Source: Bacteroidota bacterium (GTDB lineage Bacteria > Bacteroidota > Bacteroidia > M30B66). From it: 64,000 nt of DNA. Shown piece after piece: positions 12,973 through 29,869 of this stretch. Position 1 is the first letter of the stretch, and each line of letters starts with the position of its first letter. The stretch is from NCBI GenBank assembly GCA_027490225.1, contig JAIXYK010000057.1, positions 13,015-77,014 on the forward strand, in the 5' to 3' direction. Under the pieces are notes generated by a model, which had not been told where the DNA came from, did no database searches, and saw only the letters and a list, made by a program, of their open reading frames with translations. The position numbers and the translations under genes were made by a program.

Positions 12973-14052
12973 ATGAAAAAACACCTACTATTAGCATTTG
13001 CTGCATTTGCAACCTTTGAAGCATTTAGCCAGAATGGCTTAGAAAATATAATTGTTGAGAAATACTATATTTCTAATGATAACGACGCAACTGTAAATGG
13101 TACCGGCGGAGTTTTGCCAGTTGGTTCTGTAACATATAGAATATATGTAGACATGCAACCAAATTACATACTTCAAGCAATTTATGGTGTACCAGGCCAT
13201 GAAATGAGAATAGCAACAACATCATTGTTTTTTAATAATGAAGATAGAGGAGCAACAACTCCAACATATACAAAGAATCAAGCAAAGAATAATACTGTTA
13301 TGCTAGATTCTTGGTTGTCAGTTGGGGCAGCATGTGCAGGTAACTTTGGAGTTTTAAAAACAGAGGATGACGGAGCAGCCACAAACGTAAATTCTGATGG
13401 AGTTTTGCAAAACACTGATCCAAATGCTGGAATTCCATTAACACAACAAGATGGTTTATTATTAGGTACACCTCAGCCTGTAACTACAGTAGGATTAGAT
13501 AATATTGTTACTGTATTTGATAATCAAAATGATGGTACAAACGGACCTGTGTTTTCTACTTCAGATGGCGCATGGTCAGCACTTAATGGTGCAACAGGTC
13601 CAACACCATCTAATACTGTGCTAATTGCACAAATTACAACAAATGGAATTTTATCTTTTGAGCTGAACATTCAGATTAGAAGTGAAGGAGGCCAGGTAGA
13701 GAATTATGTTGCAAGAAACCCTGTAAATCAGGAGATTTTATTCCCAGGGTTAAATTTTGCCTCTGATTCACCAACAAAGAACTTATTTATAGAGGCAGAA
13801 CAAGCATTGTTCAGTTTGTTTCCAAATCCTGCTAATGAAACTTTATTTGTAAAGTTGAATTCAACTAAAAATGAAATTGGCCGTTATTCAATTTATGATA
13901 TAACAGGTAAATTGGTAACGTTAAAAACTTTAGGTGTTGTAAACGAAGGACAAATTGAAACAATTGACATCTCTCAACTTTCAAAAGGTCAGTACTTTAT
14001 GGATGTCGTTTTAAACGGAAAAAGATATACCGAAAAGTTTATAAAGAATTAA
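12973..14052 (+). CDS. T9SS type-A cargo protein, member of a local 3-gene paralog family (shared ~230-aa N-domain)
   Basis: Signal peptide. N-domain (EKYYISNDNDA...FFNNEDRGATTPTYTKNQA...DSWLSVG) shared with 17173..18510 and 21532..24978. CTD FPNPANETLFVKL...GQYFMDV. Confidence 0.65.
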   Translation: MKKHLLLAFAAFATFEAFSQNGLENIIVEKYYISNDNDATVNGTGGVLPVGSVTYRIYVDMQPNYILQAIYGVPGHEMRIATTSLFFNNEDRGATTPTYTKNQAKNNTVMLDSWLSVGAACAGNFGVLKTEDDGAATNVNSDGVLQNTDPNAGIPLTQQDGLLLGTPQPVTTVGLDNIVTVFDNQNDGTNGPVFSTSDGAWSALNGATGPTPSNTVLIAQITTNGILSFELNIQIRSEGGQVENYVARNPVNQEILFPGLNFASDSPTKNLFIEAEQALFSLFPNPANETLFVKLNSTKNEIGRYSIYDITGKLVTLKTLGVVNEGQIETIDISQLSKGQYFMDVVLNGKRYTEKFIKN

Positions 14053-14073
14053 ATCTTAAAAAATTCATATTAA

Positions 14074-14101
14074 AGACAGGTGTTAAAAACCTGTCTTTTT
14101 A
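14074..14101 (+). terminator. rho-independent terminator
   Basis: 7-bp stem AGACAGG / CCTGTCT, 9-nt loop, then TTTTT. Lies immediately after the 14052 stop. Confidence 0.6.
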
Positions 14102-14115
14102 ATTTATACCTACTT

Positions 14116-17100
14116 ATGAATAGAATTTTACTTTGTATATTAATTATTTGCTTGTATGCTCTAAACAGTTTTTCACAAGGCACTGTAAGAGGTAAAATTA
14201 CAGATGAAAACGGAGAAACTATTATTGGGGCAACAATTGTCTTGAAAGCAAACAAAAGTATTGGAACTATTACTGATTTTGATGGCAATTACTCATTAGC
14301 CATAAAGGATTCTACACTTCAAACTATTATAATTTCCTTTGTTAGTTATAAACCAATTGAGGAAAATGTTAAATTAAAGAAAGGTGAAGTTTTAATCAGA
14401 AATTTTTCTCTAAAACCAAATCAAAACGAAATTAAAGAAGTTGAAATAACTGCAACTGCCATTAAGAATAAGGAATATTTCATGGAGAATATCAAAAAGA
14501 AGTCAGCAGCTTCAATTGATTATATTTCTTCAGAGACAATGAAAAAAACAGGTGATAATAATGTTACAGCTGCAGTTGCCAGGGTAAGTGGTGTTTCTAC
14601 AAATGGAAGCTTTATTACAGTAAGGGGAATAGGTGATAGGTATTTAAAAACCAATATCAATGGAATGAGGATTCCAACATTAGACCCATTCACAAACAAT
14701 ATTAAGCTCGATTTATTTCCAGCAAGTTTGGTAGACAATATTATTATCACAAAAACTGCCTCTCCTGATTTACCAGGCGATTGGGCTGGTGCATATATTT
14801 CTATTGAAACCAAAGATTATCCTGATAAGTTAACTGTTAGTGTAGAATCTCAATTTGGGTATAATGCGCAAACAACTGGAAAAGACATGCTTACTTCAGA
14901 AAGAAGTCAAACTGATTGGTTGGGTTTTGATAATGGATTAAGAAATGTTGACCATAATAGTTTTGTGCAAGTAAATGTCAATCCTACTCAATATCAAGAA
15001 TTTGCAGCATTAGGTTTGGGTAATTATTTACAATCTTTAGGTGTAAATGAGAACTCAGCTTGGAATGATACTTACTATAAGCTTTCTTTGGTAGAACTTG
15101 GTTTATTAGATAAAGGTAGGTTTTATGATGATGCAGCAGTTGCAGCAGCTAAAGCAACTTTTAATGCTGGTGATTATAAAGGAAATGCATTTGCTACAAT
15201 AAATGAAGCTGCTTCAGCATCAAGTCAAAAGTTTGCAAATAACTGGGATACAAAAACCAGAAAAGGCCCTATGAATTTTAGCCAGAGCTTTAGTATTGGA
15301 AATCAGGTGATGCTTTTCGGAAAGCCCTTGGGTTTTTTAACGGGATTTAGATATGGAAGTTCTTTTCAGAATGACCCCAACTCAACGGTAGAAAGGGCAG
15401 GAACCGACAACAATGGAAATGTATTTGTTCCTACATTCATTAATCAGCATGTGAGCAGAGAAATGTACGGTTGGAGTGGATTAGTTAATTTAGCATACAA
15501 ATTTGCTAAAAATCACAGTGTGTCACTTTTGTTTATGCCCAATTTTAATGGAGCAAATAATGTGAGGAATGATGCTGAGTTTGATAATTCTTTCGCTTAT
15601 CAATACACTTACTCTAAGACACAGTTTTATGAAGAAAGAAGGCAAATGATTTATCAGCTCAAAACAGAGCATTATATTCCCAAACCAAAAATTAAAGTAG
15701 AATCTAATGTTTCATACACCAGAGGAAAAAGTAGCGCACCAGATTTTAAAAATTATAATTATTTCTTATCCAACGATAACCAATATATAATTGATAGAAC
15801 AGGCTCATTTACAAGCAGATTTTACAGGTATTTAACTGAAAATTTATTCGATTCTAAAGTTTCAGCAGAAATGCCATTAGGAAACAAACCTTTGCTTGTA
15901 AGAAAAGTAAAGATTGGAGGAGGATTTCAAAGAAACGACAGAGCTAACGACCAATATAATTATATAGCTAAATGGACTATTCCAGGTGCTTATGTAATTC
16001 AAAATGGAGATATATCGCCGTTTTTTGCTTTGAGCGATTTTGCATTAAACAGTAACAATCAAATTATTGCATATTACGAAAGAGATGAAAATCCGGCTAA
16101 TAGAAATATTGGTTACAGCCAGATTGTAAGTGGTTTTGCAATGACTGACTACAGCATTGATTACAGATGGAGGGTTGCTGGAGGATTAAGAATTGAGTCA
16201 GCAAGAATTTTTACAGATGTTTTGGCATATGATTCATTGGGTTATGCAGCCAATGATGGAAGAAGATTTTTTTCTGCTGGAATTCTACCATTACTGCCTA
16301 ATCCAGGAAACTTAGAAAATTTTAATCTCTTGCCGAGTGCCAATGTTATTTTTAAAATAAAACCTGAAGATGATGCGCCTATGAATTTGCGCTTTAACTT
16401 TAGTAAAACAGTTGCAAGACCAAGTATCAGAGAGCTTTCTGAGATAATTGTTCCTGATTTTGAATTACGTGCCAATGTATTTGGAAATTCAGATTTGAAA
16501 ACAGTTGAAATCATGAACTACGATTTAAGATGGGAAAATTATTTTAAATCAGGTGATAATCTTTCTTTCAGTTTGTTTTACAAAGATTTTAAAAATCATA
16601 TTGAACTAACAAACTCAACCTTAGGCTTTACATGGCAGAATATTGATAAATCTGTTGCTTATGGATTGGAATTAGAAGGTAAAAAGCGAATTATTAAAAA
16701 CTTAGAATTCAGAGGAAATATAACTATTACCAATTCTAGTTCTACATTCATACCAACCACTTTAATTTTAGATGGAGGAGTGAAGACTTATGTTCCTTTA
16801 CCAGAAGTTACTAGGTCTATGTTTGGTCAAGCGCCTTATGTTTTAAACGGTATGTTGAATTATAATTCTGATACCTTAGGTTTAACTGCCACTTTAAGTT
16901 ACAATAGACAAGGCAGAAGATTAGTAATAGCAAATGGATTTACCATTCCTGATGTGTATGAAGTACCTAGAAATTTAATTGATTTAAAAATTAGTAAAAA
17001 TCTAGGAAAGCATTTCATTGTATCTCTAACAATAAGAGATATATTGAATTCCCCAATTGTAAGAACTTATGATTTCAAAGAAGGTGATCCAATTGATTTT

Positions 17101-17154
17101 GATAGGTTTAGGTATGGAACAAATTATCAAATTGGAATTCAATATAAATTGTAA
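14116..17154 (+). CDS. TonB-dependent outer membrane receptor with N-terminal carboxypeptidase-regulatory-like domain
   Basis: Signal peptide and CarbopepD_reg-like start (GTVRGKITDENGETIIGATI). Plug domain (ITVRGIGDRYL), long beta-barrel, C-terminal aromatic (YKL). Start set after the upstream terminator; the ORF is open from 14080. Confidence 0.75.
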   Translation: MNRILLCILIICLYALNSFSQGTVRGKITDENGETIIGATIVLKANKSIGTITDFDGNYSLAIKDSTLQTIIISFVSYKPIEENVKLKKGEVLIRNFSLKPNQNEIKEVEITATAIKNKEYFMENIKKKSAASIDYISSETMKKTGDNNVTAAVARVSGVSTNGSFITVRGIGDRYLKTNINGMRIPTLDPFTNNIKLDLFPASLVDNIIITKTASPDLPGDWAGAYISIETKDYPDKLTVSVESQFGYNAQTTGKDMLTSERSQTDWLGFDNGLRNVDHNSFVQVNVNPTQYQEFAALGLGNYLQSLGVNENSAWNDTYYKLSLVELGLLDKGRFYDDAAVAAAKATFNAGDYKGNAFATINEAASASSQKFANNWDTKTRKGPMNFSQSFSIGNQVMLFGKPLGFLTGFRYGSSFQNDPNSTVERAGTDNNGNVFVPTFINQHVSREMYGWSGLVNLAYKFAKNHSVSLLFMPNFNGANNVRNDAEFDNSFAYQYTYSKTQFYEERRQMIYQLKTEHYIPKPKIKVESNVSYTRGKSSAPDFKNYNYFLSNDNQYIIDRTGSFTSRFYRYLTENLFDSKVSAEMPLGNKPLLVRKVKIGGGFQRNDRANDQYNYIAKWTIPGAYVIQNGDISPFFALSDFALNSNNQIIAYYERDENPANRNIGYSQIVSGFAMTDYSIDYRWRVAGGLRIESARIFTDVLAYDSLGYAANDGRRFFSAGILPLLPNPGNLENFNLLPSANVIFKIKPEDDAPMNLRFNFSKTVARPSIRELSEIIVPDFELRANVFGNSDLKTVEIMNYDLRWENYFKSGDNLSFSLFYKDFKNHIELTNSTLGFTWQNIDKSVAYGLELEGKKRIIKNLEFRGNITITNSSSTFIPTTLILDGGVKTYVPLPEVTRSMFGQAPYVLNGMLNYNSDTLGLTATLSYNRQGRRLVIANGFTIPDVYEVPRNLIDLKISKNLGKHFIVSLTIRDILNSPIVRTYDFKEGDPIDFDRFRYGTNYQIGIQYKL

Positions 17155-17172
17155 TTAAAAATATTTTTAGAT

Positions 17173-18510
17173 ATGACAAATGTTAGAAAACAATTCCTAG
17201 CCATTTTATTTTGCCTTTTTTTATCTCCTGTTTTTTCACAAATTGAAAATGTAGTTGTAGAAACATATTACATTTCAGATAGCAATGATGCTACTGATAC
17301 AACTGGCGGTGGAATTGAAATCGGAACTAAAACTTACCGAGTTTATTTAGATTTAGTAGCAGGGACAAGGGTGAAAAAAATATATGGAGATATCAATCAT
17401 CCCTTAATTATTAGTAGTACGCAGAACTTTTTCAACAATAAAGTTGATGGTCAAACTTTTGGTAAAGAATTTACTAAAAACAGATTAGGCGAAAATACTG
17501 TTGCCTTGGATACTTGGATAACATTAGGCCAAACAACTCGAAACGCTGCTGTTACTTACTTCGGTGTATTAAAAGTAAATGATGAAAATTCATTTATAGG
17601 CGGTTCAAATAATGATGGAGGAAGCGAAGCCATCACAAATGGATTATTAACAAATAATATTTCTGAAATGGGAATTCCATTGACAGAAAAAGATGGTATG
17701 GATACCATTTTAAATCCCCCAAATTCTTGGGCAGATTATGGTTTTGCAGATGTTGTTTCTGGAGAAGATTCAACTATTTTTGGATCATTAGTTTCTGGAA
17801 ATAGATTTGAAAGCAGAAATGCGGGATTGCTCAATTCAGGAGTTATTGGAGTTGATTCTTTGTTAAATCATGTTTTGGTTGCACAATTATCTACAAAAGG
17901 TGAAATTGCATTTGAATTAAACATTGAAGTCGAAATTCCATCATTAATTGGTTTTCAAACAGTGAAATATGTTGCCAACGATTCACTTATTGGGGAAGGA
18001 GAAGTATTAAGTCCTTTTTTAAAATACCCTCAACAATGTGGATGTCAAGATGCAAACTATTTAGAATATAGCCCGATTTATGCTTGCAACAATCCTGATT
18101 CATGCAGGAATTTAATAGTTTTCGGTTGCATGGATCCAATGGCTTGCAATTTTAGCAGTACTGCTAATTTTAATATTCAAGATATCTGCTGCTATATTGG
18201 TGATTGCAATGATTTAGATATTTCAATTGTTTGTCCATCTTTAGGAGAAAATGAAATTTCAGAAATCGAGAAATTACGCGTTTTTCCAAATCCTGCTACT
18301 GAAACAATAAATGTAAAGCATAGCTTCACTCAGAATAATGAATTTAAGATTAAGATTTTAGATCACGTAGGAAGAGTTGTTTCAGTATATAATGTTCTTA
18401 ATCCTGAAAATTCAACTGCAATTAATATCTCCAATTTTGCACCGGGTATTTATTTTATTGAGTTGACTTCTAAAGAAGGTATTTCAGCTGAAAAATTTAT
18501 TAAGCAATAA
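17173..18510 (+). CDS. T9SS type-A cargo protein, paralog-family member
   Basis: Same N-domain as 12973 and 21532 (VETYYISDSNDA...FFNNKVDG...DTWITLG). Cys-rich middle. CTD VFPNPATETINVK...GIYFIELTSKEG. Confidence 0.65.
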   Translation: MTNVRKQFLAILFCLFLSPVFSQIENVVVETYYISDSNDATDTTGGGIEIGTKTYRVYLDLVAGTRVKKIYGDINHPLIISSTQNFFNNKVDGQTFGKEFTKNRLGENTVALDTWITLGQTTRNAAVTYFGVLKVNDENSFIGGSNNDGGSEAITNGLLTNNISEMGIPLTEKDGMDTILNPPNSWADYGFADVVSGEDSTIFGSLVSGNRFESRNAGLLNSGVIGVDSLLNHVLVAQLSTKGEIAFELNIEVEIPSLIGFQTVKYVANDSLIGEGEVLSPFLKYPQQCGCQDANYLEYSPIYACNNPDSCRNLIVFGCMDPMACNFSSTANFNIQDICCYIGDCNDLDISIVCPSLGENEISEIEKLRVFPNPATETINVKHSFTQNNEFKIKILDHVGRVVSVYNVLNPENSTAINISNFAPGIYFIELTSKEGISAEKFIKQ

Positions 18511-18526
18511 TTCAATTTTTATTAAA

Positions 18527-19267
18527 ATGAAAAATAGTTTTAAAAAATATAAAAATATTTGTGTTTTAACTCTTTTAATAGGAACAAGCTTTTTGTATTC
18601 TTGCGAAGAAGATACTCCTGTAACTCCTGTTCCAGAGACAGGAACTGTTACTGATGTAAGCGGAAACGTTTATAAAACCGTGAAAATTGGAGAAAAGTGG
18701 TGGATGGCTGAAAATTTGAAAACTACAAAATTTAAAAATGGCAATGACATTCAAACAATAGCAGATGCAGATGATTGGATGCTTGGAGCTGCAGCATATT
18801 GCCAGTTTGAAAATAACCAACTTGCCCCAGGTCTTCTTTATAATTGGGCAGCAGTAAAAAGTGAAAACGGTTTAGCTCCAGACGGCTGGCATATAGCAAC
18901 AGAAGAAGATTGGAAAAATTTGGAGAGACATTTAAAAATGTCAGAAGTTGAAATTAATAAAATAAACTGGAGAGAAGATAATAAGGTTGGAGATAAATTG
19001 AAAATAAAAGGTCCAACCAGTTGGACTAGATTCGAAGATGTTTGGGGTAATAATGAAAGCGGGTTTGAAGCTCTTTCTGGTGGATGTAGATTAAATAATG
19101 GAAACTGGGGAAATCCAGGCATCGGAGCAGCAGGGTTTTGGTGGTCTTCTACTGAAAATGATTACAATACTGCTTGGATGCGACAATTAGATTATAAGAA
19201 ATCTGGTGTTTTTAGATTTTATATTCAAAAAAATTATGGGCTAAGTGTTCGTTGTGTAAAAGATTAA
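18527..19267 (+). CDS. lipoprotein with Fibrobacter succinogenes major paralogous (Fib_succ_major) domain
   Basis: Lipobox LYSC. Motifs GEKWWMAENL, LYNWAAV, DGWHIATEEDW, GFEALSGGCR, GFWWSST. Confidence 0.7.
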   Translation: MKNSFKKYKNICVLTLLIGTSFLYSCEEDTPVTPVPETGTVTDVSGNVYKTVKIGEKWWMAENLKTTKFKNGNDIQTIADADDWMLGAAAYCQFENNQLAPGLLYNWAAVKSENGLAPDGWHIATEEDWKNLERHLKMSEVEINKINWREDNKVGDKLKIKGPTSWTRFEDVWGNNESGFEALSGGCRLNNGNWGNPGIGAAGFWWSSTENDYNTAWMRQLDYKKSGVFRFYIQKNYGLSVRCVKD

Positions 19268-19288
19268 TATCACATTTCTATATGAAAA

Positions 19289-19317
19289 GCCATTTCTTAG
19301 TTGAAATGGCTTTTTTT
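19289..19317 (+). terminator. rho-independent terminator
   Basis: 8-bp stem GCCATTTC / GAAATGGC, 6-nt loop, T7 run. Confidence 0.65.
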
Positions 19318-19661
19318 GTTTTAAGCTATTTCTTACTTTCATTTAAATATCATATAAAAATCGCATTATATTAATATTTAATTAATATTCTTAATTCTTG
19401 ATTTGTTTGATAATTGTAATTTGATTTAAGAATATTATGAATTTCAAATCCTAAGTGCTTATTATTTATAAAAAAATAAAATAATGTAGAGTAAAATGTT
19501 GAATAGTTAAATTTATCATTGCTTTGTTTGATAAATCTAAATTTGACAATCCTTATAACATAGTATTCCAATGTTAATTAAATGTAAATTAAAGATTAAT
19601 AGTAATATTAAATTAAAGTGTTTTAATTTTAACAAATTGAGAAGAATATATAGGTATTAAT

Positions 19662-19687
19662 CCTTATTAATTAATCAATTAATAAGG
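19662..19687. promoter_or_regulatory. perfect 11-bp inverted repeat CCTTATTAATT-aatc-AATTAATAAGG, candidate operator
   Basis: Exact reverse-complement arms with a 4-bp spacer, ~80 bp upstream of the 19768 start codon. Confidence 0.4.
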
Positions 19688-19767
19688 TTTACTTTCCAAT
19701 TTAGTTACTCACAAGGTACACTTTTGTGCCACTCAATGTTGAGTACAAACAACCATATTATTTCATC

Positions 19768-21501
19768 ATGAAAAAAAACCTTACCAAAGTTGCAGCATTC
19801 GCACTACTTGCGATGGCAACAAGTTTCGAGGCTTCTGCGCAATTAGCATCGCAGCAAAACCTTGGAGCAGCTTGTGGATGTCCTCCAGTGGCATCTAGAC
19901 CTACTGTTTCCATGTCAACTCTTGCAGTTGTTGGTGGAGCTACTGATGGAGATTTACTTTCTCCAAACACTGTATTAACTTGCGACAAAACTTATTTGTT
20001 AGACAACAAAATTTATGTGCAAGATGGTAAATCATTGACCATTCAACCAGGTACAGTAATTAAAGGAGTTTCTACTGGAACTACAGCAGCAGCTAACGCA
20101 ATTTTAGTAAACCGTGGCGGTAAAATTTTCGCAAATGGTTCAGCAAGTTGCCCAATCGTATTTACAGCATTTGATGACCAATTAGATGGTACTTATGCAT
20201 TAACAAACAAAGGAAAATGGGGTGGAATCATCCTTTTAGGAAAAGCAAAAAACAACTTAACTACAGCTGCTAATTACAGCGCTGCAGGAACAGTAGGTTT
20301 TGCTGGAACTGCTTTAAATTCAGGATCTGTTACTTTAAGTACAGGTCAAGTAATTCCTTCTGGTTACAATGGTGGTGACGGTGTAGGATTCATTGAAGGT
20401 TTCCTTGCTGCTGATGCACGTAATTTATATGGTATGCCTGTGGGTTATGAAGATGATAACGATAACTCAGGTATCATGCGTTATGTTTCTATCCGTCATG
20501 CTGGTGCTACTGTAGGTGCTAACAACGAAATCAACGGTCTTACATTAGGTTCAGTTGGTCGTGGTACTACTTTAGAGTACATCGAAGTTGTTTCTAACGA
20601 TGATGATGGTATCGAGTTTTTTGGTGGTACTGTTAACTTGAAGTATGCAACAGTTATGTTTAACAATGATGATGCATTCGATTACGATCAAGGTTGGAGA
20701 GGTAAAGGCCAATTCTGGTTTGGTGTTAAATTAGATGCAGCTACATTTACAGGTGGCGACGGTGGTTTCGAGGTTGATGGAGATGATCAAAAATCAAATT
20801 CTTCTTACTTATCTCGTCCAATTATTTATAACGCAACTATGATTGGTAATGGTTCAAACACAACACCTACAGGTGGTGGTTCTGGTCCATTCGCAATTCA
20901 AGCTAAAGAGCGTGCTGAAGGTGAAATTTATTCTTCAATTTTCGCTAACTACAGATCTGGTTTCAACTTAGTAAAATCTTTAGGTACAAGAACTGGAACT
21001 GTAGAAGTTTACCACAACTGGTCAGGTTTTGATGCTACTACTCCAACTCCAGTTGCAATTCCAAAAACTTTCAAAGTAGAATGTAATACTTTCATTGGTA
21101 ACACTGCTGCATTAACAGTAGGTGGTTCTACAGCAAACGTTACTGCTGCTGATAACACTCAATTTGCTGCAGATAACAATGTTTCTGCTGCAACTTTAGC
21201 TGGTTTAGATTTTACATTTGCTGCTACAGGAACTACAGTTTCTGATCAGTACAATGCACAACCAAATCCTGCAGTAGCTACAACTTGTGTTGCTCCTCAA
21301 GATGGTTTCTTTACACCTGCTACTTACCGTGGTGCTTTTGCTTTAGGTCAAACATCTTGGTTAACTGACTGGGCTTATTCAGCTTTAATTGATGCTTCAA
21401 ATAACTTAGTTTCTTGTCCTACAGACTTAACTAAGGATGGAGTTACGAATACCGCAGATTTCCTTAACCTAGTTGGTGAATTCGGTAACTCTTGCGATTA
21501 A
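19768..21501 (+). CDS. secreted Gly/Thr-rich protein with C-terminal dockerin-like calcium-binding segment (no T9SS CTD)
   Basis: Signal peptide MKKNLTKVAAFALLAMATSFEASAQ. Repetitive G/T/N-rich beta-rich sequence. C-terminus CPTDLTKDGVTNTADFLNLVGEFGNSCD has D-x-T-x-D-G...D spacing between two Cys. ORF is open from 19726. Confidence 0.55.
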   Translation: MKKNLTKVAAFALLAMATSFEASAQLASQQNLGAACGCPPVASRPTVSMSTLAVVGGATDGDLLSPNTVLTCDKTYLLDNKIYVQDGKSLTIQPGTVIKGVSTGTTAAANAILVNRGGKIFANGSASCPIVFTAFDDQLDGTYALTNKGKWGGIILLGKAKNNLTTAANYSAAGTVGFAGTALNSGSVTLSTGQVIPSGYNGGDGVGFIEGFLAADARNLYGMPVGYEDDNDNSGIMRYVSIRHAGATVGANNEINGLTLGSVGRGTTLEYIEVVSNDDDGIEFFGGTVNLKYATVMFNNDDAFDYDQGWRGKGQFWFGVKLDAATFTGGDGGFEVDGDDQKSNSSYLSRPIIYNATMIGNGSNTTPTGGGSGPFAIQAKERAEGEIYSSIFANYRSGFNLVKSLGTRTGTVEVYHNWSGFDATTPTPVAIPKTFKVECNTFIGNTAALTVGGSTANVTAADNTQFAADNNVSAATLAGLDFTFAATGTTVSDQYNAQPNPAVATTCVAPQDGFFTPATYRGAFALGQTSWLTDWAYSALIDASNNLVSCPTDLTKDGVTNTADFLNLVGEFGNSCD

Positions 21502-21531
21502 TCCACATAAAATTTAAAAACAAATATTAAA

Positions 21532-24500
21532 ATGAAAAAAATATTTTTAGGCTTAGCTTTGTTATGCTCGGCGGCCTTGGTTAATGCTCAAAATGGGTTA
21601 GAGGCCCTTACTGTTGAGAAATACTACGTTTCTAATGCTACAGATGCTGCAGGAAGCGTTGGAACTTTACCAACAGGTTCTGTAACTTACAGATTCTTTG
21701 TTGACCTTTTACCAGGTTACACTTTCCAAGCAGCTTACGCTGTACCAGGAAGTGGAGGAGTTGGAGCACATCCTTTATTCTTTACTACATCAACAACTTT
21801 CTTCAACAACGAAGATAGAGGAGCTACAACGCCAACATATACAAAAACACAAGCAAGAGGTAACTCAGTAATGTTAGATTCTTGGATTTCTGTTGGTGGT
21901 GTTGCTGCAGGTAACGTAGGTGTATTGAAATCAGAAGATGATGGTGTTGCTACTGTTGTAAACAATAGTGTTCCTCAAATGCTTCAAAATGCTAATGCTT
22001 CTGCAGGTATCGCTTTATCTCTTCAAGATGGTTATTTATTGGGAACTCCAGGAACTGTTACTACAGTAGGAACTCAAATCGTAACTCAATTAGCAGGTTT
22101 AGATGCAACTAGCCAGGCTGCTAGTTCATTTTCTTTAACTGATGGTGCTTGGTCTAATTTAACAGGTTCAACTGGTCCACTAGCTTCTAACAGAATTTGT
22201 ATTGCACAGATTACTACAGATGGTGTTTTAGATTACAAATTAAACATTCAAGTTGGTGTTCCGGCTGCTAATGGTGGTGGTGTTCAGCGTTTTGTTGCTG
22301 ATAACGCTGTTGGTGCTGAGATTGCATTCCCAAGTTTAGCTGGTACATTAGGAGCTCCTAACGTATTACCAACTGTAAGTATTACATCACCAGCTAATGG
22401 TGCTTCTTTTATTACTGGTTCTACTGTAAATATCGCTGCAACAGCTGCTGATGCTGGTGGTTCAATTGCTTCAGTTGCTTTCTTTATTGATGGTGTATTG
22501 TTGTCTACAGATAACACTGCTCCTTACACAGCTTCTTACGTTCCAACTATTGGAAGTGATGCAATTACTGCAGTAGCTACTGATAACGAAGGTGCTCAAA
22601 CAACTTCAACTGCTGTTAACATTACTGTTGCTAACAACCCTCCTCCAACTGTTGCTATTACAGCACCAACTACTGGAGCTTCATTTATTACTGGTTCTAT
22701 TGTTAACATTACTGCTACTGCAACTGATAACGGTTCTGTAACAGGAGTTGAATTTTTAGTTGATGGTGTTGTTATTTCAACAGACAACACTTCTCCTTAC
22801 ACTGCAACATACACTTCTACTTTAGGTGGACACGTATTAACTGCAAGAGCTACTGATAACTTAGGTTTATCAGCAACTTCTACTGCTGTAAACATTACTG
22901 TTGTTAACAACGTGCCTCCAAGTGTAACGCTTACTTCACCTTTAGCTTCTGCTTTATTTACAGCTCCAGCAGTTGTTAATATTACTGCAAATGTTACTGA
23001 TAATGATGGAACTATTGCTTTAGTTGAGTTTTTAGTTAATGGAACTGTTGTAAATTCAACTTCAGTTGGTTCATCTCCATATTCTTTTGCTTGGACAAGT
23101 ACTCCTGGTATTAGAGCATTTTCTGTAAGAGCTACAGATAACAATGGTGGTATTACTACTTCTAACGTTGTAACATTAGAAATTGCTGATCCAAATGCAC
23201 TTCCTTACAGAATTACATCTTCAGTAAATACTTGTAATGCAACTAATTTCTGCTTACCAATCCGCGCTTTAAACACTGTTTCTAACGTTATTGGTTATGA
23301 TATCACAGTTAATTTTGATAACACTAAAGTTGCTCCTGCTGCTTCTAACACTGTAACTGTACTAGGTGATTTAATCAACCCTTCATTTGTAGAGGTTGGA
23401 AGTTCAGTAGATCAAGCTGCTGGTACTATCAACATTTACTTATCATTTAACGGTACAGCTCCTGCTGCAACTCGTTTCTCTGGAACTGGTGATTTATTAT
23501 GTATCAACTTCAACAGATTAGCAGGTTCAACTTCTACTGACGTAGCTTCTTTCTCAGTGCCTTTCTTACAAGAAAGTTATTTCACTGGTGTTCAAGGTAA
23601 ATTAACTCAAAGCGGTACTTATGAAACTTTCAGAGACACTGCATTTAATGGTAAATTAAAACTTTGGTCAGATAATAGCGCAATTGGTTACAATGCAGCT
23701 AATCCAAACCAATTCTTAATCACAAACATTAGAGGTAACAATGCTACTGGTACTGCTCCTTCTGTAACTTTGGTTCAACCAAACACTTTAGGTGAGTTCA
23801 AATACAGCACTAACAATGGTTTGTTTATCAATATCGAAAAAGATATCTTATCTAATACAGATGTTCAAGCTGTTGTAAACGGTTTCGACGCTTTATTAGC
23901 TAGAAGAATCTTATTGAATGATGCTTCTTTCTTACCAAATGTTAATCAAATAGTTGCTGCTGATGTTAACTTAGATGGTGTTATCTCTGCTGGTGATATT
24001 TCTCAAATTAACCAACGTGCAGTATTATTCATTCCTGAATTCAGACAAGCTTGGAATTACAATGCACAAGGTGTTTCTGATGGTCGTCCTTCAAAAGATT
24101 GGTTATTTATTGACTCTGCAAGAGTTGTTTCAAATCCTTTGTATACACGTTCAACTACATATCCTGCTTCTAACGGAACTGGTTTCAACAAGTCAAACGT
24201 ACCTCAAGTACCTTTCAATTTACCAGTTGTAGTAAGTAACTTTGCAGTTTGTCCTGAATTCTCTTTAGAATTTTATAATGGAGTTTTAATTGGAGATGTT
24301 AACGGTAACGTTGCAACTGCAAATCCAAGCAACTTATTCAGAGATGAGGCTAACAAAGTTATTTTCAACTTAAACCAAGCTGTTTATGCTAACAATACAG
24401 TTGAAATTCCAGTTTCTGTTTTAGGAACTAATGTTATAAACTCTGTGGATTTTGCATTACAATTAGATGAGTCTAAACTTTCTTTCAACTCTATTAATAA

Positions 24501-24978
24501 TGTTGATGCTTCTTTAGATGCATTCAGCCACTTTAATACTGAAGACAGAACAGTACGTTTCACATCTAACAACATGGAAGCAATTCAAAATAATGCAGTT
24601 CTTGCTACATTAAAATTGAACATTGTTTCTGGAAATGTTTCTTCTTCTGATATTAAAAACGCAATTTCTTACTTAAACGGTGATGCTTCTGGTGTTGAGT
24701 TTGTAGGAGATTTCTCTACGGGTATCAATGCAGTTGATTTTTCAAATGTAGTTTCTGTTTTCCCTAATCCTGCAAACGAATATGTACAAGTTCTTTCTCC
24801 TGAATCAGCTAACATTCAATTGTTAGATGCTGCTGGTAGATTAGTTCTTGGTTCAATCAATGCAATTGGTGGTCAAACACAAACTATCAACACTTCAGAT
24901 TTATCTGCTGGTGTTTATTTTGTTCGTATTGCAAACGATAATTTTTCAGTAATGAAGAAAATTGTTTTGAACAAATAA
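21532..24978 (+). CDS. large T9SS type-A cargo protein: paralog N-domain + 3 Ig-like repeats + 2 cohesin-like modules + dockerin-like segment + CTD
   Basis: N-domain matches 12973 and 17173. Three ~90-aa repeats. Modules similar to 25122 and 25951. Segment DVNLDGVISAGDISQINQRAV. CTD VFPNPANEYVQVL...GVYFVRIANDNFSVMKKIVLNK. Confidence 0.7.
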   Translation: MKKIFLGLALLCSAALVNAQNGLEALTVEKYYVSNATDAAGSVGTLPTGSVTYRFFVDLLPGYTFQAAYAVPGSGGVGAHPLFFTTSTTFFNNEDRGATTPTYTKTQARGNSVMLDSWISVGGVAAGNVGVLKSEDDGVATVVNNSVPQMLQNANASAGIALSLQDGYLLGTPGTVTTVGTQIVTQLAGLDATSQAASSFSLTDGAWSNLTGSTGPLASNRICIAQITTDGVLDYKLNIQVGVPAANGGGVQRFVADNAVGAEIAFPSLAGTLGAPNVLPTVSITSPANGASFITGSTVNIAATAADAGGSIASVAFFIDGVLLSTDNTAPYTASYVPTIGSDAITAVATDNEGAQTTSTAVNITVANNPPPTVAITAPTTGASFITGSIVNITATATDNGSVTGVEFLVDGVVISTDNTSPYTATYTSTLGGHVLTARATDNLGLSATSTAVNITVVNNVPPSVTLTSPLASALFTAPAVVNITANVTDNDGTIALVEFLVNGTVVNSTSVGSSPYSFAWTSTPGIRAFSVRATDNNGGITTSNVVTLEIADPNALPYRITSSVNTCNATNFCLPIRALNTVSNVIGYDITVNFDNTKVAPAASNTVTVLGDLINPSFVEVGSSVDQAAGTINIYLSFNGTAPAATRFSGTGDLLCINFNRLAGSTSTDVASFSVPFLQESYFTGVQGKLTQSGTYETFRDTAFNGKLKLWSDNSAIGYNAANPNQFLITNIRGNNATGTAPSVTLVQPNTLGEFKYSTNNGLFINIEKDILSNTDVQAVVNGFDALLARRILLNDASFLPNVNQIVAADVNLDGVISAGDISQINQRAVLFIPEFRQAWNYNAQGVSDGRPSKDWLFIDSARVVSNPLYTRSTTYPASNGTGFNKSNVPQVPFNLPVVVSNFAVCPEFSLEFYNGVLIGDVNGNVATANPSNLFRDEANKVIFNLNQAVYANNTVEIPVSVLGTNVINSVDFALQLDESKLSFNSINNVDASLDAFSHFNTEDRTVRFTSNNMEAIQNNAVLATLKLNIVSGNVSSSDIKNAISYLNGDASGVEFVGDFSTGINAVDFSNVVSVFPNPANEYVQVLSPESANIQLLDAAGRLVLGSINAIGGQTQTINTSDLSAGVYFVRIANDNFSVMKKIVLNK
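22371..23190 (+). repeat. three tandem ~270-nt repeats encoding Ig-like domains inside 21532..24978
   Basis: Protein repeats ...SP..GASFITGS.VNI.ATA.D.G......F.VDGV..STDNT.PYTA.Y....G......A.DN.G...TSTAVNITV.NN occur three times. Confidence 0.7.
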
Positions 24979-25000
24979 TAATTAATTAGATTTTTCAAAA

Positions 25001-25032
25001 AGGGTCTTGATTCATTTCAAGGCCCTTTTTTT
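25001..25032 (+). terminator. rho-independent terminator
   Basis: 9-bp stem GGGTCTTGA / TCAAGGCCC with one G-T wobble, 6-nt loop, T7 run. Confidence 0.65.
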
Positions 25033-25121
25033 ATTAAAATTTTTACAAAAACTTAATATTGAAGAATCTAATTTATTAAACTTAAAAATTACATTTACAC
25101 GATAATAAATACTTTGCAACC

Positions 25122-25907
25122 ATGAAAAAATTATTACTTTCTGTTTTTGTACTTACTGGCTTTTCTTTGTTTGGAACGATAAATTTCAATGCAATTGAAG
25201 GTAAGGACAATGACAATAAAAATACCTTAAAGCCTATTACAGAAGGAATCAGAACAATAGATTCTGGAGATACGGTAGTTTTCGACTTAACTCAAATTAC
25301 TGATTTAGGTAATGCAGTTATATTTCCTGTTTCTGTTATTTCAGACGATGTAATCTTATCTTTAGATTTTTCATTAAAATATAACCAAACTGATTTTAAT
25401 TGGGATACAATCATTCCTAATACAACCAATGTATTAAATGCTACACAGAATTTTAATGAGAATGATTTAACGTTACGTTTTAGTTCATATACATTAGATT
25501 TTAATCAAGGGTATTTGTTATCAGAACCAATTGTAGATATTCGTTTTAATGTGCTTGCTGGGGTTTTAGACAGCAGCGATTTGGATATAGTAGCTGTGTA
25601 TTTAAATGGAGATCCTTGCAGCTTTATTGTAAAAGTAGATGCTGCTGTAGGACTTGAAAATACAATGAAAAAAGCAGCATTTGTGAATGTTTTTCCAAAT
25701 CCAACAAGCAATTTTGTAAGTTTGACTTGCAGCGACAATGCAGTTGCTGAAATAGTTGATTTAAATGGAAAATCAATCATTTCCAATATTGAATTAAATG
25801 CGGGGCAAAATACATCAGTTGCCACTAATAATATTGCAAGTGGAATCTATTTTGTAAAATTCACATCATCCAATAAAACACAGTTTAGAAAATTAATCAT
25901 ACAGTAG
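25122..25907 (+). CDS. T9SS type-A cargo protein with single cohesin-like module
   Basis: Signal peptide. Module DTVVFDL...FPVSVISDDVILSLDFSLKYN...LTLRFSS...AVYLNGD. CTD VFPNPTSNFVSL...GIYFVKF. Confidence 0.6.
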   Translation: MKKLLLSVFVLTGFSLFGTINFNAIEGKDNDNKNTLKPITEGIRTIDSGDTVVFDLTQITDLGNAVIFPVSVISDDVILSLDFSLKYNQTDFNWDTIIPNTTNVLNATQNFNENDLTLRFSSYTLDFNQGYLLSEPIVDIRFNVLAGVLDSSDLDIVAVYLNGDPCSFIVKVDAAVGLENTMKKAAFVNVFPNPTSNFVSLTCSDNAVAEIVDLNGKSIISNIELNAGQNTSVATNNIASGIYFVKFTSSNKTQFRKLIIQ

Positions 25908-25950
25908 TAATTTTATTACTTTTGAACTATTGTATTGTTAATTTTTTAGT

Positions 25951-26718
25951 TTGATGAAATATGTTGTCTTGTTTATTTTTAGTTTAAGTATCTTTTCATT
26001 TAGAGGTATTTCCCAAGAAAATGATTTAGATAACATTTTAAAAAACGAAAATTTTATAGACTCTATTTTGTCTAATTTATCATTTACAATTGATGAATTA
26101 GACACTGTAGTTTTTGATATTAATTCTGGAAATTTTAATTCAGATTTCATAGAATTTCCAGTAAGTATTATTAGCGATGATTCTATTTATTCTTTAGATT
26201 TTTCTTTTGAATTTAATAGCTTAAATTATGTTTATGATACTGTTTATCCATTGATTTCTCCAGTTCAATTTCTCGCTTATTTTAATACTGAAGATTTACG
26301 TTTGCGATTTACTTCCAATAGTTTTACAATTTATCCAACATTGACTCCTGTAGTTTTTGTTGGATTTAACATTTTAGACTTTTCATTTTGCGAGTTGAAT
26401 TTTTTTGAGCCCAAGGCATATCTTAATGGCGATAGATGCAGCGTGAAAATTACTGCTTGTCCAGATCCAACATTCATTGAAAAAATAGCCGCTTCCAAAT
26501 TAGTTTACCCAAATCCTGTTATAGATGAACTCTTTATAGCTCAGCCTCAGGGTTCCAAAGTTTACATTTTAGATAACCTTGGAAATATTGTTTATGAAAA
26601 GTTTAATCAACAAATGTCTTCGACTATTTCTATGGAGAAATTTAGTGCTGGAGTGTATTTTTTAAAACTTGAAACGTCCTCCTCAGTAGAATCACATAAG
26701 ATTATTGTTACCAAATAA
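25951..26718 (+). CDS. T9SS type-A cargo protein with single cohesin-like module (paralog of 25122)
   Basis: Module DTVVFDI...FPVSIISDDSIYSLDFSFEFN...LRLRFTS...AYLNGD. CTD VYPNPVIDELFIA...GVYFLKL. Confidence 0.6.
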   Translation: MMKYVVLFIFSLSIFSFRGISQENDLDNILKNENFIDSILSNLSFTIDELDTVVFDINSGNFNSDFIEFPVSIISDDSIYSLDFSFEFNSLNYVYDTVYPLISPVQFLAYFNTEDLRLRFTSNSFTIYPTLTPVVFVGFNILDFSFCELNFFEPKAYLNGDRCSVKITACPDPTFIEKIAASKLVYPNPVIDELFIAQPQGSKVYILDNLGNIVYEKFNQQMSSTISMEKFSAGVYFLKLETSSSVESHKIIVTK

Positions 26719-27239: not shown

Positions 27240-27950
27240 ATGAAAAAAGCTCTTTTTACAATTTCTGTTATCGCGCTTATTGCTTTAATAGGTTGTAAAC
27301 ACGATTTGCAAATGGCAATTACGGAGCTAAATGGAGGATCAGATACAACTGTAATAAATCCTCCACCACCCGTTGATACAATGATTTGTTTTGAATCTCA
27401 AATTTTGCCATTGTTTGTTAGCTCTTGTGCCAAAAGTGGCTGTCATGATGCGATTACAGCAGAAAAGGATTACATTTTAACGAGTTATCAGGCAATAATG
27501 GAAGAGATTGTGCCCTTTAATCCGAATAACAGCAAATTTCTTGAAGTGATGCTTTTGCCGGCAACTGAAAATGATGCAATGCCACCACTTCCAGCTGCAC
27601 GAATGACTGCTGAACAAATTGCTTTAATTACACAATGGATAAATCAAGGTGCCCAAAACACAACAAATTGCGCCAACACATGCGATACAACTCAGTTTCA
27701 ATATACAGCTCATATTAAACCAATAATGTCAACTTATTGCAATGGCTGTCACCAAGGTACGAGTCCTTCGGCAGGAATAAATACATCTACTCATGCAGGA
27801 TTAAGCGCCATTGCAGCAAATGGCAAATTGGTAGGTGTTACCAATCATTTACCAGGATTTTCATTCATGCCACAAAATCAACCTTTAATGGATGCTTGTT
27901 ACAGAACTAAAATTCAGAAATGGGTTTTAGCAGGTGCTCCAAACAATTAA
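27240..27950 (+). CDS. lipoprotein with two c-type-cytochrome-like (PSCyt1-like) domains
   Basis: Lipobox LIGC. ILPLFVSSCAKSGCH (CX4CH) and YCNGCHQG (CXXCH), each followed by ...MPP/MPQ...W(I/V).(Q/A)GA, the Planctomycete-cytochrome-C-type layout. Confidence 0.55.
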   Translation: MKKALFTISVIALIALIGCKHDLQMAITELNGGSDTTVINPPPPVDTMICFESQILPLFVSSCAKSGCHDAITAEKDYILTSYQAIMEEIVPFNPNNSKFLEVMLLPATENDAMPPLPAARMTAEQIALITQWINQGAQNTTNCANTCDTTQFQYTAHIKPIMSTYCNGCHQGTSPSAGINTSTHAGLSAIAANGKLVGVTNHLPGFSFMPQNQPLMDACYRTKIQKWVLAGAPNN

Positions 27951-27963
27951 TTATTATCTAAAT

Positions 27964-28350
27964 ATGAATAAAATTATTTTGCTATGTTTTGCCTTTGTTT
28001 CAATTAGTTTAACTTCTTGCTATTATGATGTAGATGAGGAGTTAAATCCACCATTAACAAACAATGATTGCGATACAACAGCTTCAAAATTTGCTGCAGA
28101 TATACAACCAATTTTAAATTCAAACTGTGCCACATCGGGTTGCCATACTGCTGCTGTAATAGCTGGAGGATATGTCTTTGATAATTATAACGATGTGAAA
28201 TCTACAATTGTAAATGACTCTGCAAGGTTTATTGGTTCTATTTTGCAACAAACTGGCTATAGCCCAATGCCAAAAGGAGGCGGTAAATTAAGCGATTGTA
28301 ATATTTCTAAAATAAAAGCCTGGCTTGCATCGGGTGCCCCCAATAATTAA
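27964..28350 (+). CDS. lipoprotein with one c-type-cytochrome-like (PSCyt1-like) domain, tandem paralog
   Basis: Lipobox LTSC. NCATSGCHTA (CX4CH)...SPMPKGGGKLS...WLASGAPNN. ORF is open from 27934 but that overlaps the previous gene; ATG at 27964 preferred. Confidence 0.5.
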   Translation: MNKIILLCFAFVSISLTSCYYDVDEELNPPLTNNDCDTTASKFAADIQPILNSNCATSGCHTAAVIAGGYVFDNYNDVKSTIVNDSARFIGSILQQTGYSPMPKGGGKLSDCNISKIKAWLASGAPNN

Positions 28351-28378: not shown

Positions 28379-28945
28379 ATGAAAAAATCAATTTTATTTT
28401 TTGCTGCTTTTACAGCATTTGTTTCATTAAATGTAAACGCACAAGATCAATATTTTACAAAAACTGCTAAAATAAATTTCGATGCATCTCCTGCTGAACC
28501 GATTGAAGTAATAGATGCAGTTAACAATGAAGGAACTTCTTTGTTAAATGTTAAAACGGGTGATATTGGATTTATGCTTTTAGTTAAGAGCTTTCGTTTT
28601 GAAAGAGCTTTAATGGAAGAGCACTTTAATGAAAATTATATGGAAAGTACAAAGTTTCCTAAAGGAGATTTTAGTGGGAAGATTGATAATTTATCTGCTG
28701 TAAATTTTACAAAAGATGGAACCTACAAAGTAAAAGTTTCAGGGAAATTAACCATACATGGCATTACACAACCAACTACTGCTGACGGTGTTATTACTGT
28801 TAAAAACGGTAAAATATCTGCAAGCTCAAGTTTTTCAATTAAACTAGCTGATTATAAAATTGACCGTCCGAAAGTGGTTGCCAATAAAATTAACGAAACT
28901 GTGAAAATTACTGTTGCTGCTAACTACGAATTGAAAAAAAAATAG
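28379..28945 (+). CDS. YceI-like family periplasmic protein
   Basis: Signal peptide; YceI pattern (KINFDAS.AEP...GKLTIHGITQP...). Confidence 0.7.
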   Translation: MKKSILFFAAFTAFVSLNVNAQDQYFTKTAKINFDASPAEPIEVIDAVNNEGTSLLNVKTGDIGFMLLVKSFRFERALMEEHFNENYMESTKFPKGDFSGKIDNLSAVNFTKDGTYKVKVSGKLTIHGITQPTTADGVITVKNGKISASSSFSIKLADYKIDRPKVVANKINETVKITVAANYELKKK

Positions 28946-29869
28946 ATGAAGCAATCTTTAATAACCTTAATTTACATTACGTTTTTTCATTTGATTGGAG
29001 TTGCTCAACCCGACGATTTAACGAAGATGATGGAGGAAGAAATGGGAGCTTCTAACGAGCCCGATTACGCTTCTGCAACTTTTAAAACTACACGTTTGGT
29101 CAACGGCCATACCAATGAGCAAGTCGCACCCGGAGTTTTAGACTTTAGAATTGGTCACCGTTTCGGGGCATTTAATACTGGGATTTATAATTTCTTTGGT
29201 TTAGATCAGGCAAGTATGCGGATGGCCTTTGAATACGGGATAAACGATTGGTTAATGATAGGAGCAGGGAGAAGCACTTATCAAAAAACGTATGATGGTT
29301 TTGTAAAAGCTAAGATTATTAGGCAGCAAAAAGGCAAAAGAAATATTCCTATTTCAATTAATTATTTAGGAGCAATGGCGGTTAAAACGCTCAAATTTTC
29401 AAATCCTGAAAACACTAATTTTTATACATCAAACTTCTTTTATACACATCAATTAATAATCGCTAGAAAATTTTCAGAAAGTTTTTCTTTTCAAGTTTTG
29501 CCAACTTTGGTACACAGAAATTTGGTTGAGAAAATAACAGACGAACACGATATTTACTCAATTGGTGTGGGAGGAAGAATGAAACTTTCTAAACGTACTT
29601 GTGTGAATGTGGAGTATTTTTATCAGATTAATAAACCAAGAGATGTAATTAATTCCTTAGCGATAGCATTTGATATTGAAACTGGAGGCCACGTGTTTCA
29701 ACTAGCCTTTACAAATGCAGCAGCGATGATTGAGCATGCATTTATTACGCAAACTACAGGAAGATGGGACAAAGGAGATATTATTGGTGGTTTTAATTTA
29801 TCTCGTGTTTTTACTTTGAAAGACCCTAGAAAAAAGGGAACAAAAAATGAAGACGCTCCAAGTAAATAA
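28946..29869 (+). CDS. hypothetical secreted protein (possible outer-membrane beta-barrel, DUF5777-like)
   Basis: Signal peptide. Alternating hydrophobic beta-strand pattern. Starts 1 nt after the YceI stop. Confidence 0.45.
   Translation: MKQSLITLIYITFFHLIGVAQPDDLTKMMEEEMGASNEPDYASATFKTTRLVNGHTNEQVAPGVLDFRIGHRFGAFNTGIYNFFGLDQASMRMAFEYGINDWLMIGAGRSTYQKTYDGFVKAKIIRQQKGKRNIPISINYLGAMAVKTLKFSNPENTNFYTSNFFYTHQLIIARKFSESFSFQVLPTLVHRNLVEKITDEHDIYSIGVGGRMKLSKRTCVNVEYFYQINKPRDVINSLAIAFDIETGGHVFQLAFTNAAAMIEHAFITQTTGRWDKGDIIGGFNLSRVFTLKDPRKKGTKNEDAPSK

Follow-up and report, generated by a model that had tools for sequence, protein, structure and literature searches.

We analyzed four consecutive genes, p591, p1148, p261 and p255 (19768-26718), in a 64-kb stretch of a Bacteroidota bacterium genome (contig JAIXYK010000057.1), the whole of which is called the window below. 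Cohesin and dockerin modules are both encoded by these genes, and both lie on proteins with T9SS (type IX secretion system) sorting domains. On balance, we consider it probable that the locus specifies a non-cellulosomal cohesin-dockerin set on T9SS-sorted proteins, in which the X-dockerin of p1148 binds cohesins in trans. An earlier sequence-only reading had proposed a cellulosome-like surface complex, with p591, which lacks a T9SS C-terminal sorting domain (CTD), docking onto T9SS-anchored scaffold modules. The open reading frames (ORFs) and loop motifs that it listed were found at their positions, with the peptides present in p1148 and at the C-terminus of p591, and its distribution of sorting domains was reproduced. 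We observed no CTD on p591, while p1148, p261 and p255 score 56.1/51.3, 50.9/50.5 and 47.2/49.3 bits, respectively, against Por_Secre_tail/TIGR04183, above the curated cut-offs, as does the upstream protein p445 (57.7/46.9 bits). The obvious dockerin partner for the cohesins, the dockerin inside p1148, had been left unused in that model.

The cohesin-like modules had been described as four copies of one shared pattern. We built a hidden Markov model (HMM) of the pattern family, named A2, from the three B-type modules of the window and seven database homologues. It matched the modules of p255 (E 1e-58; 26062-26484) and p261 (E 1e-54; 25230-25673) and the second module of p1148, cohesin B (residues 930-1067, E 5e-54; 24319..24732). 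The first module of p1148, cohesin A (residues 555-705; 23194..23646), gave no A2 match even at E<=10. Profile-profile comparison (hhalign) of module A with the B-type modules or family was not significant either (E 0.24 and 0.024), and the A and B types cannot therefore be linked by sequence. Thus, the shared pattern holds for three modules, and module A, with a type-I-like fold in the model, is a cohesin by fold and belongs to a different subfamily.

An exhaustive profile search returned 607 cluster representatives for the B-type family, most of them ~250 aa long. Among the best 150 of these 607, 135 carry Por_Secre_tail and 82 match Pfam Cohesin (PF00963; E<=0.01, best 5.4e-10). Because of these 82 matches, the copies in the window are regarded as divergent members of a family overlapping Pfam Cohesin, and their own membership is transitive, at the family level. 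The p261 module was modeled with AlphaFold2 as nine strands, with a predicted local distance difference test score (pLDDT) of 84 and a predicted template modeling score (pTM) of 0.80. In a Foldseek search of this model against PDB, the top 50 matches were almost all cohesins, the first being 4dh2_A (E 4e-6), and included non-cellulosomal cohesins of A. fulgidus and C. perfringens. The predicted nine-stranded beta-sandwich (jelly-roll) can be superimposed on solved cohesins. When profiles were compared with PDB sequences, a 4-sequence profile matched cohesin 5nrm/5nrk (E 0.0017), a 10-sequence B-type profile gave cohesin matches that were non-significant only, and the module A profile gave nothing relevant. 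Taken together, the family scans and Foldseek place the modules in the cohesin family or the cohesin fold: the cohesin modules are real, and three of the four (p1148 930-1067, p261 and p255) form one family.

The loop that had been singled out in p1148 as near-textbook, DVNLDGVISAGDISQINQRAV (residues 811-831, nt 23962-24024), belongs to a dockerin, as the sequence-only reading had supposed. The module spans residues 771-835 (23842..24036), and its second loop, DVNLDGVISAGD, is canonical; the calcium ligands D811, N813, D815 and D822 of this second repeat are invariant in 32 sequences. When homologues of the C-terminal half of p1148 were scanned, 49 of 64 matched Pfam Dockerin_1 (PF00404) at E<=0.01, and two of the ten examined in detail reached the cut-off of that family (P0304 with 30.4 bits and P0290 with 22.9). 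The model predicts a three-helix dockerin fold after an X module, with helices at 784-794, 804-810 and 820-830 (DSSP on the model, pLDDT >90). The X-like module itself (23647..23841) consists of modeled beta strands. For the modeled segment 548-935, whose three cohesin-X-dockerin (Coh-X-Doc) domains have a pTM of 0.77, the best Foldseek matches were 4fl4_C/I/L and 3kcp_A, the CohI9-X-DocII of CipA, with E 1e-9 over ~325 columns that include the X-like module and the dockerin.

The full order of p1148 (21532..24978) is signal peptide, N-domain, three Big_7 domains, cohesin A, X, dockerin, a conserved region, cohesin B and CTD (type A; 24757..24975). The N-terminal domain of ~260 aa (21589..22356) has no family name and is common to the upstream proteins p359 and p445 (phmmer E 4e-80 and 1e-22). 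The three Big_7 domains (22369..23187) are immunoglobulin (Ig)-like, match Pfam Big_7 in three stretches (1.4e-45) as well as PDB entries 9x9r and 3pdd, and may form a stalk. The conserved region after the dockerin (residues 836-929; 24037..24318) has near-invariant columns and a pLDDT of ~90-95, and may pack against the dockerin. We noticed in it the motifs EFxQAWNY, SKDWLF and GYSK..VP, followed by a third calcium-loop-like GDVNGN, and no family is assigned to it. The two small proteins, p261 (25122..25907) and p255 (25951..26718), each consist of a signal peptide, one B-type cohesin and a T9SS CTD (25689-25904 and 26503-26715, respectively). p1148 contributes two cohesins, p261 and p255 a single one apiece, and every one of these proteins bears a CTD, an arrangement that can be called cellulosome-analogous. 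Nevertheless, "cellulosome-like" overstates it because there is no dockerin-bearing enzyme in the window: a dockerin HMM and a loop regular expression run over the 64 kb found no other dockerin and no such enzyme. A Pfam scan of the operon found no carbohydrate-active enzyme domain.

To analyze the conservation of the locus, we used three independent queries (the Beta_helix_4 proteins, to which p591 belongs, the small cohesin-CTD protein, and the stand-alone Coh-X-Doc protein described below), and all of them converged on one type of locus. The Beta_helix_4 gene adjoins the gene for a large T9SS protein with cohesin A (CohA), a dockerin (Doc) and cohesin B (CohB) in 15 loci (the window, L003-L012, L018, L019, L087 and L088). 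In most of these loci, one or two further proteins come next, each combining a B-type cohesin at the N-terminus with a T9SS sorting domain. Many uncultured Bacteroidota share this conserved operon order. Five loci that are more divergent (L013-L017) keep the C-terminal tail of the Beta_helix_4 protein, and their adjacent large protein carries PKD/Ig stalks and has no cohesin or dockerin detected in the sequence covered. Three of them, L014, L016 and L017, were covered for 10 kb on each side and contain no cohesin gene there; L013 and L015 were covered in part. Genes for small cohesin-CTD proteins were seen only where the large protein has the cohesin-dockerin cassette, and are absent from the three fully covered loci without it. 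Thus, cohesin and dockerin co-occur across loci and are lost together in the fully covered ones. The N-domain is present on the large protein in L014, L016 and L017, where this was checked, as well as in neighbors of loci without cohesins, and it accompanies the Beta_helix_4 gene constantly, also where cohesins are missing.

One locus bears directly on the mode of binding. In L087 (JGI 3300050093), the gene at 8001-9149 encodes a secreted protein of 382 aa, made up of a signal peptide, CohB and X-Doc without a CTD, and is positioned between two genes for CTD-bearing CohA-X-Doc-CohB proteins. This case of domain fission, with a CTD-less CohB-X-Doc protein so placed, implies interaction in trans. 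We found 15-20 similar stand-alone secreted proteins of ~380-400 aa, with a B-type cohesin and X-Doc and no CTD, among P0303-P0328.

The first gene of the set encodes p591, whose ORF opens at 19726 or 19768 and ends at 21501; counted from the ATG at 19768 it has 577 aa and is 100% identical to the database protein P0008. We assigned it to PF28492 (Beta_helix_4) from the precomputed matches of P0008 and of all listed homologues, and more than 2868 homologues with such a match make up the family. The protein has a Sec signal peptide and no Por_Secre_tail match. It ends in a Cys-bracketed single calcium loop followed by a helix, CPTDLTKDGVTNTADFLNLVGEFGNSCD (21415..21498), which forms its last 28 residues. 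This tail, with the consensus CPTD[IL]NGDG[IV]TNNxDFLxLLGxFNQSC, is conserved in 120 of 120 listed homologues; in an alignment of 83 sequences both Cys, D553, G558 and D564 are invariant, and D557 and N561 are nearly so. Among all ORFs of the window with 100 aa or more, the loop pattern D.[NDST].[DNS]G.{5}[DE] was counted three times, where shuffling of residues predicts 0.35; p591 and its neighbor p1148 account for two of the three occurrences. Paralogues that are distant members of Beta_helix_4 terminate with a T9SS CTD (many in Bacteroidota) or with nothing, and canonical dockerin-like repeats such as DADGSGAISIGDAVYIINYIFGG stand at the end of those in L058 (Zixibacteria) and L072 (Pirellulales). 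Since the paralogue ends differ in this way, C-terminal targeting modules appear to be swapped within the family.

Several further features of the Beta_helix_4 family were noted. It has an invariant N-terminal CGCPP and six invariant Cys, and its acidic motifs DDNDNSG, SNDDDGIEFFGG and NDDxFDWDxGW suggest that the beta-helix binds metal or is catalytic. Members occur in Bacteroidota, Verrucomicrobiota, Latescibacterota and other groups, and some proteins contain the domain in tandem.

The proposal that the CTD-less p591 docks through its tail, as a single-loop "mini-dockerin", onto a cohesin such as CohA, giving a cellulosome-like display, now seems quite unlikely to us. The tail does resemble one dockerin repeat and fits the repeat consensus, and the sole PDB sequence matched by the p591 family profile is a dockerin, 2y3n_B, in both its repeats; that match, however, is non-significant (E 0.21). 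Dockerins require two repeats and have three helices, and the tail fails this architecture because it is a single loop-helix repeat. Pfam and NCBIfam scans of it gave no match at E<=1, and with the single repeat this led us to drop it as a member of a recognized dockerin or EF-hand family. Its invariant conservation, its Beta_helix_4 gene always directly upstream of a p1148-type gene, and the ratio of four cohesins to one dockerin in the locus are in line with docking. Against it, L013-L017 keep the tail with no cohesin or dockerin found in the sequence covered, and the three loci covered in full contain no cohesin gene for 10 kb on either side, which led us to reject a dependence of tail conservation on cohesins; and the constant neighbor of the gene is the N-domain, not the cohesins. 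Moreover, a Sec-only protein in a diderm remains periplasmic unless it is co-exported, and we know of no route by which a protein with a Sec signal and no CTD crosses the outer membrane of Bacteroidota. p591 is a conserved operon partner. Its tail, placed where paralogues carry a CTD or, in other phyla, dockerin-like repeats, occupies a position used for targeting or anchoring, which is a further point for docking. Because this is where paralogues carry a surface-sorting signal, we keep alive a related idea, distinctly unlikely in our judgment, that binding of the cohesin-dockerin type carries CTD-less proteins (the Beta_helix_4 protein with its half-dockerin tail, stapled by a putative disulfide, and the stand-alone Coh-X-Doc proteins of related loci) to the surface, either by binding a CTD-bearing partner in the periplasm and leaving with it through the T9SS as piggyback cargo or by capture at the surface, the tail replacing in function the CTD of paralogues. 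Literature searches on T9SS piggyback export and on FISUMP, the family of a lipoprotein encoded upstream, found nothing pertinent.

The remaining alternatives concern the modules themselves. In one, there is no binding between the modules of cohesin fold and those resembling dockerins; they would act as spacers or as beta-sandwiches that bind carbohydrate or another ligand, the loops being calcium-stabilized structure of a surface adhesin or nutrient-capture protein. We think this rather unlikely. Most non-cellulosomal cohesins and dockerins reportedly have no demonstrated partner (Peer et al. 2009), and the context of a TonB-dependent receptor and a lipoprotein is typical of nutrient capture. 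The CBM2 structures among the fold matches and the larger conserved block around the dockerin, both described below, also fit this alternative; the invariant second-repeat ligands speak against it. Binding of the dockerin to cohesin A or B in cis, as an autoinhibited or structural clasp with no intermolecular assembly, is very unlikely in our view. Cohesin and dockerin do share one chain, and the pTM of the three-domain model suggests a defined inter-domain arrangement, but a clasp leaves the separate small cohesin-CTD proteins and the stand-alone Coh-X-Doc proteins unexplained. Binding of the p1148 X-dockerin in trans is best supported because the modules co-occur and, in the fully covered loci, are lost together, the Coh-X-Doc order is exactly that of a known interacting scaffoldin, and the CTD-less Coh-X-Doc proteins, as in L087, are hard to explain without docking; the same three observations argue against modules that do not bind.

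Several points nevertheless weigh against binding in trans by genuine cohesins and dockerins. None of the four modules of the window matches PF00963 at E<=1, and module A and its 10 tested homologues never do, a negative that by itself would fall under the refuting condition named in the sequence-only reading. Judged by direct Pfam/NCBIfam scans alone, the cohesin identity would wrongly have been refuted; it took scans at the level of the family and predicted structures to reverse this. CBM2 and other beta-sandwiches have folds similar to that of cohesins, and two CBM2 structures stand in the Foldseek list of the p261 model (ranks 23 and 39). The p1148 dockerin scores 20.2-21.3 bits against Dockerin_1 (E 3e-4 to 7e-4), 2-3 bits under the Pfam cut-off of 22.9. 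Its first repeat keeps only Q779, N783 and D786, with positions 1 and 3 varying, and the first loop is probably degenerate for this reason. The dockerin is also embedded in a larger conserved block, between the X module and the 95-aa region, and its binding face may be occupied in cis. Finally, type A CTD cargo can be released instead of anchored.

If the X-dockerin of p1148 does bind in trans, as we favor, a working model can be proposed. p1148, p261 and p255 would be exported by the T9SS and attached to the surface, where the calcium-dependent X-dockerin of one p1148 would bind a cohesin of p261, of p255 or of another p1148. Such binding would build an oligomer or lattice of cross-linked proteins at the surface, in which the small p261 and p255, each a cohesin with a CTD, would play the part of clostridial anchoring scaffoldins. 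The assembly could hold the N-domain/Ig stalk beside the co-conserved TonB-dependent receptor, the two N-domain paralogues and the FISUMP lipoprotein, and would serve ligand capture, not enzyme display.

Among the high-affinity assembly modules of bacteria, cohesin-dockerin pairs are understood best, but little has been learned of their roles outside Firmicute cellulosomes. The closest structural counterpart of the p1148 CohA-X-Doc appears from the model to be the CohI9-X-DocII of CipA from C. (Acetivibrio) thermocellum (4fl4, 3kcp; anchors SdbA, OlpB and Orf2p), at a sequence identity of only ~10-12%. Unlike in the CipA system, which uses SLH domains in a monoderm, the sorting signal here is a T9SS CTD in a diderm; p1148 has only one canonical calcium loop, and its dockerin is followed by an extra conserved 95-aa region and by another cohesin; and CBM3, the run of nine enzyme-binding cohesins and dockerin-bearing glycoside hydrolases are all absent here. 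Non-cellulosomal cohesins and dockerins reportedly occur in all three domains of life according to the 2009 survey by Peer et al. Examples among our fold matches, such as the A. fulgidus cohesin 2xdh and the C. perfringens GH84C/GH33 toxin complexes (2jh2, 2vo8, 2o4e), likewise lie outside cellulose degradation, often with the modules on one polypeptide. Those examples come from archaea and Firmicutes and are enzyme-attached or stand-alone, whereas the proteins here are non-enzymatic, T9SS-sorted and encoded by a TonB-dependent receptor locus in Bacteroidota. p1148, p261, p255, p445 and the p359-type proteins share the CTD of T9SS type A cargo (in p359-type proteins as a precomputed match), and cohesin and dockerin passengers are unusual for described cargo.

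The idea of a T9SS-anchored cohesin scaffold has already been proposed, since a cellulosome-like complex with a cohesin scaffoldin bearing a T9SS-type CTD was predicted for 'Ca. Stygibacter' of the Cloacimonadota (PMC8542988). The two systems share a cohesin scaffold with a C-terminal T9SS sorting domain within the FCB group, but that scaffoldin has 3755 aa with tandem cohesins and carbohydrate-binding modules, and is accompanied by a dockerin-bearing chitinase, amylase and peptidases (PMC8542988), whereas the cohesins of the present locus are spread over three proteins with no dockerin-bearing enzyme. Dockerins have been reported in rumen Bacteroidetes (PMC6487960), and no cohesins, dockerins or scaffoldins were found in the genomes studied of cellulolytic Bacteroidetes (PMC5831590; PMC6247017). 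In the literature searched, neither this conserved operon nor the small cohesin-CTD family was found described, and neither was T9SS cargo with a Coh-X-Doc cassette like that of CipA. The operon, widely conserved in Bacteroidota, brings such a CipA-like cassette and the minimal cohesin-CTD proteins together with type IX secretion and a cluster around a TonB-dependent receptor. Should the modules bind one another, the locus would offer a simple testable model for T9SS cargo in higher-order surface assemblies and new orthogonal Coh-Doc pairs for surface display in Bacteroidota, and one would have to ask how partners without a CTD get to the surface.

All genes from p359 through p255 lie on the plus strand, and a convergent gene lies beyond p255. 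With gaps of only 30, 143 and 43 nt between p591, p1148, p261 and p255, these four genes look like one operon. The operon is set apart from the unit upstream by a terminator-like hairpin (19284-19315, a 13-bp stem followed by a T-run) and a conserved promoter-like block. Between the hairpin and p591 lies an AT-rich leader/promoter region (19316..19767) with 80% AT and conserved blocks in an alignment of seven loci; the loci examined (L003-L011) have a comparable gap of ~380-500 nt ahead of their Beta_helix_4 gene. An A..TTTG block ~35 nt 5' of the p591 ATG is invariant in the alignment, and by its sequence resembles the -7 promoter element of Bacteroidota; a TAAT..TAAG block is conserved as well. 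An Rfam scan of the ~450-nt leader gap gave no match, and a regulatory RNA in this gap was dropped as a candidate.

The upstream unit (12973-19267) is conserved and consists of p359 (12973-14052), a TonB-dependent receptor gene (14080-17154), p445 (17173-18510) and a FISUMP/Fib_succ_major lipoprotein gene (18527-19267). It looks like a SusD-less nutrient-capture cluster. In the FISUMP lipoprotein, LYSC followed by EEDT looks like a lipobox and an acidic surface-export signal. The GC content is 0.37-0.39 across p591 and p1148 (20001-24000), compared with 0.30-0.33 in the flanks, which probably reflects the Ala/Gly/Thr-rich composition of the proteins, not a foreign origin. Downstream, two small secreted proteins (27240-28350) contain several CxxCH-like or C..GCH motifs, putative heme c sites; next come genes for YceI (28379-28945) and DUF5777 (28946-29869). 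The identical contigs L001 and L002 have this same neighborhood.

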